A program made the position numbers and the translations under genes. Under the pieces are notes generated by a model. That model made no database searches. It was not told the origin of the DNA and was given only the letters and a program-made list of their open reading frames with translations. Below, in pieces: positions 10,178 to 12,975 of a stretch of DNA of 32,000 nt; position 1 is the first letter of the stretch, and each line of letters opens with the position of its first letter. The stretch is from an uncultured Planctomycetia bacterium (GTDB lineage Bacteria; Omnitrophota; Gorgyraeia; Duberdicusellales; 4484-171), in contig CAZHYN010000002.1 in NCBI GenBank assembly GCA_964536865.1, positions 1 to 32,000 on the forward strand. The letters are read 5' to 3'.

Positions 10178-10219
10178 CTATCCTTTTATGGTAAATATAT
10201 TTTAACTATCCAATTATGG
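10178..10219. promoter_or_regulatory. Two direct 14-nt repeats (CTATCCnnTTATGG) in the XRE/recombinase divergent control region; candidate operators
   Basis: ctatccttttatgg at 10178-10191 and ctatccaattatgg at 10206-10219, with 12/14 identity and 28-bp spacing, between the two divergent start codons. Confidence 0.3.
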
Positions 10220-10242
10220 ATTTTAACAAAGAGGAGGCTAAA

Positions 10243-11799
10243 ATGCAAGAAAAATTAAGATGTGCAATTTATACAAGGGTAAGTACGGATAATCAAGCAG
10301 AAGTTGAGTTTAACTCTTGTGAGGCTCAAGAAGAAAAGATAAGAGCATTTATTAAAAGTCAAGAAAATATGATAATTTATAAAGTTTACTCTGATGCTGG
10401 GTCCACAGGAGTAAATCTTAATAGACCTGCTTTACAGAAATTACTTGAGGATATAAAACAAGGCAACATTAACATTGTTTTGGTTTACAAAATTGACAGA
10501 CTTACCCGTTCTCCTAAAGATTTCTACTACTTAATGGAGATTTTTGAGAAATACAAAGTTGATTTTATCTCAATCACAGAAAGATTTGATACCTCTACTC
10601 CAGCAGGAAGACTTTTAAGAAACATAATGCTTACCTTTGCTCAGTTTGAAAGAGAGTTAGCAAGTGAGAGAACAAAAGATAAGATGCTTCAGAGAGCAGA
10701 AAAAGGGTTATGGAATGGCGGTATTTCTCCATTTGGATACAAGACATTAAATAAGAAACTTGTTCCTCATGAGCAGGAAGCTAAAGTTGTTAAGTTAATA
10801 TTTGAAACTTATGTTGATACTGGGTCTATAGCAGAGGTTTATAACACCCTGAAAGAGAAAAATATTTTAAATAGGCATGGCAAAGTTTTTACCAAATCAA
10901 GTATTAAAAATATCCTCTCTAATCCTGTCTATATCGGGAAGTTAAAATATGCTGGGAAAATTTATAATGGACTACATCAGCCTATAATTAGTGAACTTCT
11001 CTTCAACGAAGCTCAGGAACTGCACAAAAAGAAAATCAGGGAAATGAAACTCTTTAGAAATTATCTTTTTGCAGGTTTAATCACTTGTGAGGAATGCAGA
11101 TCAAAAATGACGCCAACCTATACAAACAAAAAAGCAAAAAGAGGAAGAAAGAGATATTTTTATTATAGATGCACCTCTACCCTAAAAAGAGACTGGCAGG
11201 TATGCACTACAAAACAGGTAAACGCTGATAGGCTGGAAAGATTTGTTTTAGAAAATTTAGAAAGAGTATCAAAAGATGAGCCTTATATTGAAAATCTTTG
11301 TTTTAAACTTAACCACAATCCAGATGAGTTAGTTCGAAATTCTCTTATAAAAAATAAGGTATCGGGCGACCGGGCTGGATTCGAACTAAGCAGGGAGCAA
11401 TTGAAAATTGAGCCTAAAGGTTTAATTTTCCAACTTAAAACCTTCCTTAACACTCTCTCCTCCCTCTCCCGAGCCGAGCAGGTTCTTTTAATAAAAGAAA
11501 AAATTGACTCAATAAAATATTCCAAAAAAAGAATCAGGGTAAACTTCAAATATTCCTTAAAAATCAACAACTTAAACCCCTCTCAACAAGGTTCTGGTCA
11601 GGTGGGGGTGGGTGGTGGGAGTTTAGAGAAAGAAAATCAAAATATCCCTTCCTTTTATTCTTCCGATTTAGTTCGAAAAGAAATAATGGCTCCCCGGGCA
11701 GGGCTCGAACCTGCGACCCGCTGGTTACACCTAATCCCTGAGTTTCCCCAGAGGGTGGACTATCTCTTCACCATATTCCGACGTAATGTCGGAACTTAG
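10243..11799 (+). CDS. Large serine recombinase (integrase type); the formal ORF has no stop before the tRNA and ends inside the intron on the opposite strand
   Basis: Start ATG 10243 with GAGGAGG at 10231-10237. Resolvase catalytic domain (RCAIYTRVSTDNQ, IDRLTRS), recombinase domain, zinc ribbon (CEEC...YYRC...C) and the terminal beta-hairpin block IKYSKKRIRVNFKYS ending near 11565. The last ~80 codons cover a G-rich tract, the antisense tRNA 3' exon (MAPRAGLEPATRW) and 72 nt of intron. Confidence 0.85.
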   Translation: MQEKLRCAIYTRVSTDNQAEVEFNSCEAQEEKIRAFIKSQENMIIYKVYSDAGSTGVNLNRPALQKLLEDIKQGNINIVLVYKIDRLTRSPKDFYYLMEIFEKYKVDFISITERFDTSTPAGRLLRNIMLTFAQFERELASERTKDKMLQRAEKGLWNGGISPFGYKTLNKKLVPHEQEAKVVKLIFETYVDTGSIAEVYNTLKEKNILNRHGKVFTKSSIKNILSNPVYIGKLKYAGKIYNGLHQPIISELLFNEAQELHKKKIREMKLFRNYLFAGLITCEECRSKMTPTYTNKKAKRGRKRYFYYRCTSTLKRDWQVCTTKQVNADRLERFVLENLERVSKDEPYIENLCFKLNHNPDELVRNSLIKNKVSGDRAGFELSREQLKIEPKGLIFQLKTFLNTLSSLSRAEQVLLIKEKIDSIKYSKKRIRVNFKYSLKINNLNPSQQGSGQVGVGGGSLEKENQNIPSFYSSDLVRKEIMAPRAGLEPATRWLHLIPEFPQRVDYLFTIFRRNVGT

Positions 11800-12022
11800 G
11801 TGCCGGGCGCTTCCCCCGATATAACATCGGGGTACTCCCTTTTCGGGATAGTCTCTGCACCTTCCCCGACGTTCCGTCGGGGCTTGGCTCAGGGTTACCA
11901 TCCCTGAACTACAAGAAGTTCAGAGTACAGGCTTCCCTGAATTCACCCGGTTTTTCATCCCGATGTTTCCATCGGGAGCTGCTCTTCACAGCCAGCTGCT
12001 CTACCTGCTGAGCTACCGGGGA
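11687..12022 (-). tRNA. tRNA-Asn(GUU), interrupted in the anticodon loop by a group I intron
   Basis: Exon 1 (12022-11988) is TCCCCGG TA GCTC AGCAGGTA GAGC A GCTGG CTGT. Exon 2 (11727-11687) is TAA CCAGC GGGTC GCAGG TTCGAGC CCTGC CCGGGGA G CCA. Joined, they give a perfect cloverleaf with loop CUGUUAA (anticodon GUU), U1-A72, G73 and encoded CCA, as in bacterial tRNA-Asn. Confidence 0.85.
11728..11987 (-). ncRNA. Group I self-splicing intron, subgroup IC3-like, 260 nt, no internal ORF
   Basis: P1 pairs exon GCUGU with intron GCAGC (nt 6-10), giving a U.G wobble at the 5' splice site. The terminal nucleotide is G (omega-G). P2 is an 8-bp stem with a GAAA tetraloop. Blocks GAGCCAAGC, GAAGGTGCAGAGACTA, GGCACCTAAG and TATGGTGAAGAGATAGTCCA match, from memory, the Azoarcus tRNA-Ile and cyanobacterial tRNA-Leu introns. 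P7 is GACTAT/ATAGTC and P3 is CCGGGTG/CGCCCGG. Confidence 0.85.
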
Positions 12023-12435: not shown

Positions 12436-12464
12436 ATTATACAACCATTGTTCTAATTTATCAA
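12436..12464 (-). promoter_or_regulatory. Candidate sigma-70 promoter for the relic exon / GIY-YIG / tRNA-Asn unit
   Basis: Minus strand TTGATA (12464-12459), 17-nt spacer, TATAAT (12441-12436), about 45 nt upstream of the relic exon. Such matches arise by chance in AT-rich DNA. Confidence 0.35.
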
Positions 12465-12766: not shown

Positions 12767-12975
12767 ACAAATTTTTCCCCGCCTGCTAAAAGTATATGTA
12801 AGTATCGGCGGGCAGGTAATGAAAAATTTGGGTTAAAAAATGAGCAAAGACTTCCCCAAAATTTTGGAAATCTAATGTTTTCAATGCTCTTTTAAGGTGA
12901 GAAATCCCGTTGTAAATTATCCATTTCATAGACAGGAAAACTCCAGGTTTTACAAATTGAAAGTTTATCAATAAG

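Follow-up and report, generated by a model that had tools for sequence, protein, structure and literature searches.

As hosts of group I introns in bacterial transfer RNA (tRNA) genes, reviews up to 2014 and the paper describing tRNAscan-SE 2.0 name only tRNA-Leu, tRNA-fMet, tRNA-Arg, and tRNA-Ile2. A scan of ~80,000 genomes extended these four classical types to 21 cases (Williams KP, 2020; bioRxiv 10.1101/2020.01.27.920355), and the seed alignment of that study includes Pam37.Asn.4Ug, an intron that splits tRNA-Asn(GUU) after U35. Here, a split tRNA gene in the first 32,000 nucleotides (nt) of contig CAZHYN010000002.1 (GenBank assembly GCA_964536865.1), the stretch referred to below as the window, is compared with these introns. 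It is highly probable that this gene, carried on the chromosome of a Candidatus Omnitrophota bacterium, encodes tRNA-Asn(GUU), that a 260-nt intron of the Asn.4Ug class interrupts it between U35 and U36, and that the intron splices in the manner proposed below.

The class to which the intron belongs was already catalogued in 2020 and is widespread in uncultured bacteria. A first-pass annotation of the window had taken an Asn(GUU) host with an insertion at 35/36 to be an unusual and possibly undescribed location, a view that neither the Asn.4Ug entry of Williams (2020) nor the present survey allows. When one genome per species was scanned for the signature GGGTGAATTC-N-AGAGACTA-N-AGCGCCC, at least 120 loci from many phyla were recovered. 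Among the matches listed, 97 could be classified, and these included at least 44 tRNA-Asn(GUU) genes split after U35 and at least about 38 tRNA-Phe(GAA) genes split after U33, along with a few tRNA-Leu, tRNA-Met, tRNA-Thr, tRNA-Arg, tRNA-Ser, and tRNA-Asp genes. The nearest intron among the matches listed is 77% identical to that of the window; the individual sequence is therefore new while its kind is not, and interest in the intron is accordingly modest since its class is both catalogued and widespread.

Anatomy of the split tRNA-Asn gene

The whole split gene occupies positions 11687-12022 of the minus strand, an extent re-derived from the sequence that coincides exactly with the one first proposed, in which the strand had been left unstated. 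The 5' exon (12022-11988, 35 nt; read 5' to 3' from 12022: UCCCCGGUAGCUCAGCAGGUAGAGCAGCUGGCUGU) comprises tRNA nucleotides 1-35 and ends in GGCUGU, with U35 as the nucleotide preceding the intron (U-1). The 3' exon (11727-11687, 41 nt including CCA: UAACCAGCGGGUCGCAGGUUCGAGCCCUGCCCGGGGAGCCA) begins UAACCAGC and ends GCCA, extending from U36 through the discriminator nucleotide G73 to an encoded CCA. Between the exons lie 260 nt (11987-11728) that begin GAAGAGCAGC and end GGAUUAGGUG, the last nucleotide being the terminal (omega) G at 11728. That this insert is a group I intron, as had been claimed, is supported by its fold, by covariation, and by an Rfam covariance-model scan in which RF00028 was matched over the full model (1-253) at 83.4 bits (E 4.9e-20; gathering score 50). 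RF00028 was the sole Rfam family reported across the 32 kilobases (kb). Sub-threshold Rfam matches around the locus were judged to be due to chance, and a cmscan placement of P1 upstream of the tRNA (12071-12040) was set aside as a misalignment, with P1 being assigned by hand instead.

When the exons are joined, they form the canonical 76-nt cloverleaf of tRNA-Asn(GUU), in keeping with the earlier assignment. With default settings ARAGORN called no tRNAs in the 32-kb window; the split gene is the sole tRNA of the window and hence, as first stated, its only tRNA-Asn copy. An independently assembled Logan contig (L122) carries the locus with 100% identity, which excludes an assembly artefact. 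The host is identified as Candidatus Omnitrophota from the names borne by 90%-identity cluster members of three proteins of the window, LipA, FtsK, and GcvPB.

The helix P1 (11977-11993, minus strand, as are all intron features given here) pairs the exon sequence GGCUGU (11993-11988) with the internal guide GCAGCU (11982-11977) across a 5-nt loop, GAAGA, and sets a U35·G pair at the 5' splice site. The same geometry recurs in the 45 homologous Asn introns among the matches listed (hereafter, the listed homologues): the last six nucleotides of the 5' exon are near-invariant, and U-1, the U·G pair, the three pairs that follow it, and the terminal G are each conserved in 45/45. The P1 pairing, U·G pair, and 3'-terminal G first described for the window thus stand. 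In the 23-sequence alignment introduced below, P1 is 94.9% paired and invariant, which is attributed to its pairing with the anticodon loop. P2 (11959-11976), evident both in the sequence and in the minimum free energy (MFE) fold, is capped by a GAAA tetraloop at 11969-11966; when it was folded alone in nine sequences, a stem of 7-8 base pairs (bp) with a GNRA loop (GAAA, GUAA, or GCGA) was obtained.

The core follows in the expected order. The 5' strand of P3 (11950-11944), a 7-bp CCGGGUG/CGCCCGG helix, leads through J3/4 (AAU) into the P4-P5-P5a-P6-P6a domain (11940-11859), the whole spanning 11859-11950. The 5' strand of P7, G(A)GACUA with its bulged A (11849-11855), pairs with UAGUCC at 11762-11757 to form the guanosine-binding helix, and its position agrees with the P7 annotation of the Williams seed alignment. 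Two further hairpins, P7.1 (UCCC-GAAAA-GGGA, 11848-11836) and P7.2 (CCCCGAU-GUUAU-AUCGGGG, 11832-11814), separate P7 from the 3' strand of P3 (11814-11848); this two-hairpin form occurs in 24/45 of the listed homologues, and the remainder have one long hairpin. The segment 11757-11809 comprises the 3' strand of P3 (11809-11803), P8/P8a (11802-11769) with the CCUAAG...UAUGG of an 11-nt GAAA-receptor motif, J8/7 (AAGAGA), and the 3' strand of P7. The intron closes (11728-11755) with P9, a hairpin with a GAAA loop (11755-11736), and a 3' tail, AUUAGGUG, that ends in the terminal G. All positions that are invariant in the family are present, namely P7 and its bulged A, the GAGCCAAG and AGAGACUA blocks, J8/7, U-1, and the terminal G. 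The 260 nt hold no open reading frame (ORF) of the intron's own, and no intron-encoded endonuclease is present. One Asn intron of 365 nt (L115) has an apparent partial internal duplication of P2-P7, in which a second AGAGACTA lies upstream of the complete core.

An independent, unconstrained MFE fold (z = -8.0) recovered all nested helices (P2-P6a, P7.1, P7.2, P8a, and P9). Covariation was assessed in a MAFFT alignment of the window with 22 homologues of the two-hairpin form (23 sequences). Standard pairs filled 87.9% of pair cells as compared to 76.1% after shuffling (reached in 0/500 shuffles), changes on both sides were seen at 48 pairs as compared to 28.5 in shuffles, and sliding the partners by 1-3 columns lowered pairing to 35-50%. 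P3, P6, P6a, P7, and P7.1 are 100% paired, P8 97.8%, P4/P5 97%, and P7.2 96%. Covarying pairs make up 6/6 of P6a, 4/4 of P7.1, 6/6 of P7.2, two pairs of P3, three of P8, and the inner five of P9; compensatory changes occur in P3, P4, P5, P6, P6a, and P8, and P7 is invariant. The GAAA-capped P2 and the P3 and P7 pairings of the first-pass annotation are borne out by the sequence, with support from this set for P3 and P7 and from the MFE fold for P2; likewise, the extra hairpins that it placed between P7 and P3' are real and covary. Anatomy, homology, and covariation are in these respects matters of direct observation.

The GIY-YIG cassette and the insertion site

The less familiar feature of the locus is a cassette made of a GIY-YIG gene, a duplicated exon, and hairpins. 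Directly upstream of the tRNA and co-oriented with it is an ORF of 116 amino acids (aa; 12259-11909, minus strand) with a GIY-YIG domain encoded by 12259-12023 (Pfam PF01541, E 2e-14). The ORF has no stop of its own: its frame extends across the 5' exon and on into the intron. Relatives measure 80-81 aa and are ~65% identical across phyla, an 80-aa protein of this kind being a bare catalytic domain that lacks a DNA-binding domain; the nearest solved structures are those of UPF0213 proteins (PDB 1zg2 and 1ywl; E 4.5e-4). Farther upstream (12390-12274, minus strand), a decayed duplicate of the tRNA 5' exon can be followed in the correct order (UCCCCGGU ... AGCAGGUA ... GAGCAGCU ... GGCUGU), its GGCUGU end lying 14 nt before the GIY-YIG ATG. 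Two 30-nt modules (12381-12352 and 12309-12280), each a pair of 15-nt hairpins, break up the duplicate, which also holds a 20-nt local hairpin insertion (an inverted duplication); the fold of the region has z = -4.5. The four hairpins take the form NNNGCC-nnn-GGCN'N'N'; a search of the window for YYMGCCNNNGGCKRR matched these four and nothing else, against an expectation of 0.01. Upstream of the duplicated exon, a sigma-70-like promoter (TTGATA-17-TATAAT, 11/12 matches; 12436-12464, minus strand) is the likely start of a transcript spanning duplicated exon, GIY-YIG gene, and pre-tRNA, although the number of promoter-like sites in the region equals that expected from shuffled sequence, which makes the promoter weak evidence by itself. 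On a contig that is 96-100% identical to the window (L125, 1-1215; JGI Ga0190363_1080932), three units of duplicated 5' exon and GIY-YIG gene stand in tandem with hairpin modules at differing positions, indicating that the copy number of the cassette varies between close strains.

The cassette was surveyed in 80 metagenomic loci and in two further loci (L123 and L124), which together hold 87 copies of the gene, and its layout proved to be general there. An intron-less, co-oriented tRNA starts within 60 nt downstream of the gene in 59 of the 87 copies (Asn 27, Lys 11, Val 10, Ile(UAU) 5, Phe 2, Ala 2, Pro 1, and Arg 1), and 27 of these 59 ORFs read the tRNA's own U8-A9-G10 as a TAG stop. Eight further copies stand beside an intron-containing tRNA-Asn. 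A duplicated 5' part is present in 43/48 loci, its end ranging from tRNA nucleotide 7 to 45, and at least two perfect hairpins occur upstream in 35/48. The hairpin pairs fall after tRNA nucleotide 8, 12/13, 17, 28/29, or 36/37, in every case a little upstream of the ATG and of the point where the duplicate ends, and compensatory changes at the three outer stem positions speak for a base-paired structure. At one locus (L124, 1855-1955), a tRNA-Val pseudogene that lacks the first six nucleotides lies downstream of a functional tRNA-Val and carries the same 30-nt hairpin module in its D loop (after nucleotide 17). In the upstream regions of three others (L166, L168, and L126), hairpin modules are nested in the loops of others, as if they insert into one another.

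No prior description of this layout of GIY-YIG gene, duplicated exon, and tRNA was found in the literature searched, the nearest being T4 SegB and a note on a fusion of Slx1-like and TrmH proteins. It is quite possible, if short of probable, that promoter, decayed 5' duplicate with one or two of the 30-nt hairpin modules, 80-aa GIY-YIG gene, and intact tRNA together constitute an undescribed selfish element (or a tRNA-linked gene) lodged in the 5' half of tRNA genes. Such an element would use the promoter of the tRNA and often its U8-A9-G10 stop; at tRNA-Asn, its junction frequently coincides with the 35/36 intron site, and the intron might thus act as a shield from the nuclease. Should the cassette be confirmed as mobile, it would represent a new route by which selfish DNA can settle in a tRNA gene and yet leave that gene intact.

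The 35/36 site itself is a recurrent homing site, as indicated by the several intron core types and the HNH-like ORFs that occur there. Among the loci found via the GIY-YIG gene, eight more tRNA-Asn genes are split at CTGT/...G/TAA by introns of 219-562 nt that represent at least three core types. Four of the eight (L151, L175, L176, and L182) carry an ORF of 104-142 aa between the 5' splice site and the guide, that is, in the P1 loop. These ORFs are HNH-like, with CxxC...HH...CANCHREVH motifs, and the three that were compared with Pfam scored 17.9-19.6 bits, short of the 21.4 cut-off. Within the subtype of the window, an Omnitrophota intron (L077, 5716-6052) retains a CANCHREVHA remnant in its P1 loop, and the intron of the window plausibly descends from a form that lost its endonuclease gene. 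Alleles with and without the intron, which the first-pass annotation had suggested looking for, were both found: beside the at least 44 intron-bearing homologues, a metagenome-assembled genome from another Omnitrophota bacterium (L123) has an intron-less tRNA-Asn that reads GGCTGT/TAACCAG over the exon junction of the window. As in the window, the neighbors of that gene are a GIY-YIG gene upstream and a serine recombinase downstream.

The coincidence between the end of the duplicate and the intron site raises the question of collaborative homing, in which the free-standing GIY-YIG enzyme would cut intron-less tRNA-Asn near 35/36, the ORF-less intron would shield its own copy, and both would spread together. 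Consistent with this, the duplicated exon ends at or next to nucleotide 35, the intron site, in the window and at five other loci (L125, L103, L129, L140, and L194), the 35/36 intron is present in 8 of ~38 GIY-YIG-linked tRNA-Asn genes, and the GIY-YIG protein resembles TIGR01453 (group I intron endonuclease), albeit weakly and below the cut-off (E 6e-4). However, most of the linked tRNA-Asn genes, including the 27 within 60 nt, are intron-less and intact, and a GIY-YIG gene is present at only 1/44 of the genome intron loci among the matches listed; for these two reasons the link between intron and GIY-YIG gene is rated weak. Moreover, the cassette also precedes tRNAs for Lys, Val, Ile, Phe, Ala, Pro, and Arg, the end of the duplicated exon varies between loci from nucleotide 7 to 45, the 80-aa protein has no DNA-binding domain beside its catalytic one, and some Asn introns have an HNH-like ORF of their own. 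Collaborative homing is therefore considered unlikely.

On the 3' side, a large serine recombinase gene (10216-11799, plus strand; Pfam Resolvase, Recombinase, and Zn_ribbon_recom) converges on the end of the tRNA, and its ORF, antisense to the tRNA gene, stays open over the 3' exon and the adjoining 72 nt of the intron. Its NCBIfam matches, which fall below their cut-offs, are to families similar to CcrB and XisF. The recombinase beside the intron-less tRNA-Asn of L123 (1799-3243, minus strand) is 25% identical to that of the window, and the two accordingly provide no evidence of one shared element. An att-like repeat of the tRNA 3' end, such as could mark an island boundary beside the recombinase, was not found in the 32 kb.

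Proposed splicing and alternative readings

The intron is probably self-splicing, and the steps can be proposed from its anatomy. The internal guide GCAGC would pair with exon GCUGU to form P1 and set the U35·G wobble at the 5' splice site, whereupon an external guanosine bound in P7 would attack 3' of U35. The terminal G (11728) would then take the place of that guanosine in P7, and the freed 3'-OH of U35 would attack 3' of the terminal G and thereby ligate U35 to U36, restoring the GUU anticodon in a 76-nt tRNA. As in the Azoarcus intron, the fold is probably clamped by the GAAA loops of P2 and P9 and the 11-nt receptor motif of P8; judging from the Azoarcus structure, the P8 receptor is presumably the docking site of L2, and P5 that of L9. 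The exons are probably held together by the anticodon stem (GCUGG/CCAGC), which would serve in place of P10. Such a contribution of the anticodon stem to exon alignment has been shown for the Anabaena pre-tRNA intron (Zaug et al., 1993, as cited in PMC3984707).

Several points weigh against this reading. Catalysis and splicing in vivo are inferred, on the basis of the intron's anatomy and what is established for group I introns in general, and a P10 pairing was looked for and not found. P2, P5a, and P8a are less well supported than the other helices, since the MAFFT alignment leaves them no more than 52-60% paired; the low values are ascribed to misregistration of length-variable hairpins, and P2 and the insert between P7 and P3' were folded separately, outside the MAFFT register. 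A second GGCUGU stands at the end of the duplicated exon (12279-12274) in the same predicted transcript and could act as a cryptic 5' splice site that competes for the internal guide. Finally, an uninterrupted second tRNA-Asn may lie outside of the 32-kb window.

If such a second gene were present, the split copy might be a tolerated pseudogene and its intron a dead relic. Mobile DNA does crowd the locus, given the stopless GIY-YIG ORF reading into the tRNA, the duplicated exon, and the recombinase, and the intron has no encoded endonuclease. In addition, closely related strains (L205 and L209) lack the whole locus at this position. Strains that are 93% identical to the window (L205-L211) share gcvT-H-PA-PB-lplA-lipA-trmI and then diverge at ~12821-12833; beyond this point neither the tRNA nor the intron nor a GIY-YIG gene is present in L205 and L209, and the contigs of five relatives end within a few hundred bases of the break. 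The point is a variable region and an assembly break-point. These strains were considered as a source of an intron-minus allele at the matching position and rejected, as the locus is either wholly absent (L205 and L209) or lost to a contig end. Against decay, all core pairings are intact and the family-invariant positions are all kept, both exons are intact and yield a perfect cloverleaf with an encoded CCA, and the sequence is identical in an independent sample. We therefore regard a dead relic as very improbable, and a tRNA-Asn gene whose intron splices as outlined above remains the preferred reading.

The remaining alternative concerns the position of the splice sites. Since the 5' and 3' junctions contain GU and UG, respectively, U-1 and a terminal G are both preserved in either of two registers: tRNA-Asn(GUU) split after U35, and tRNA-Thr(UGU) whose intron would separate U33 from U34 (exon ...CU, intron GUGAAG...UUAGG, exon UGUAACC). 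The latter is the call of ARAGORN in intron mode, and 11/44 homologues among the matches listed share this formal ambiguity. The Thr host can be dismissed almost entirely, since P1 (GGCUGU/GCAGCU) pairs U33 with A and has its sole U·G wobble at U35, the Asn position is the only one with U-1 and a terminal G in 33/44 of those homologues, the spliced tRNA is more similar to 31 intron-less tRNA-Asn genes (best identity 0.91, median 0.79) than to tRNA-Thr (at most 0.70) and starts with the U1 common to all 31 rather than the G1 of tRNA-Thr genes, and the intron-less allele of L123 has a GUU anticodon. The spliced tRNA also shares G73 with most of the 31 tRNA-Asn genes.

With tRNA-Asn(GUU) as the host, the value of the intron lies mainly in annotation. 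Standard tRNA finders miss the gene, and Omnitrophota and many other uncultured phyla can seem to lack tRNA-Asn because finders of the ARAGORN type overlook a gene that is split by an intron.

Comparison with known nucleases and introns

The nearest analogues of the cassette are T4 SegB (PMC2330249), a homing endonuclease of the GIY-YIG type encoded within a cluster of tRNA genes, and the small GIY-YIG proteins of the UPF0213/YhbQ/Slx1-like kind. The cassette shares with SegB a physical tie between a GIY-YIG domain and tRNA genes. It differs from SegB and YhbQ in that its protein is ~80 aa long without a DNA-binding domain and is encoded on the chromosomes of uncultured bacteria, and in that the gene is always directly upstream of a co-oriented tRNA and accompanied by a duplicate of the 5' part of that tRNA and by pairs of 15-nt hairpins, an arrangement that is undescribed for SegB or YhbQ.

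Among described introns, the counterpart is Pam37.Asn.4Ug, with which the window was compared by eye, block by block, and by pairwise alignment. Both interrupt tRNA-Asn(GUU) after U35, the fourth nucleotide of the anticodon loop, with U-1 and a terminal G; their cores have the blocks CGGGUGAAUUC, GCAGAGACUA, AGCGCCCG, and GAGAUAGUCCACC in common, and in each of them P9 is capped by GAAA and an insertion separates P7 from P3'. Of nine seeds compared, Pam37.Asn.4Ug ties for the most matched positions (169-171), although global pairwise identity to the Williams seeds (0.53-0.64 of the query) discriminates weakly. Pam37 differs in its additional hairpins downstream of P2 and in its P7.1, a single long hairpin whose internal loop, UGAGGA...CCAAUAA, is conserved, whereas the intron of the window has the two-hairpin form (P7.1, GUA, and P7.2), a minimal P1 loop, and an Omnitrophota host. 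Relative to the well-studied ribozyme of the Azoarcus type, the two-hairpin form is a natural variant, and a compact one.

The description of the intron as IC3-like holds for its core. Like the Azoarcus tRNA-Ile(CAU) and the cyanobacterial tRNA-Leu(UAA) and tRNA-fMet introns, it is a small, ORF-less intron of the anticodon loop, and its helices follow one another in the same order. Comparison with the seed alignment supports the near-identity of sequence blocks noticed earlier, these being J3/4-P4, GAGCCAAG, GGUG(U/C)AGAGACUA, and J8/7-P7, and GAAA at L2 and L9 and the CCUAAG/UAUGG receptor in P8 are likewise shared. The architecture is compact, with P2, L2 and L9 tetraloops, and neither P2.1 nor P5abc, and it aligns blockwise with the four classical IC3 tRNA introns. 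The classical introns differ in host and site (Leu at 34/35; Ile and Arg 3' of the anticodon), and the window departs from them in its 7-bp P3 and in a 37-nt P7.1/P7.2 insertion that they lack, such that helices stand between P7 and the 3' strand of P3 (11848-11814) where an IC3 intron should have none. In this one respect the IC3 label does not fit, as the P7.1/P7.2 pair is a feature of the subgroup IA type. Michel and Westhof reportedly described, in 1990, subgroup IA phage introns such as T4 td in which P7.1 and P7.2 set P7 apart from the 3' strand of P3. The intron of the window resembles these phage introns in the two extra hairpins, but it has the core of an IC3 tRNA intron, contains no ORF, and interrupts a tRNA gene instead of a phage protein-coding gene. 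On its sequence, it would best be called an IC3-derived variant rather than a textbook IC3 intron.

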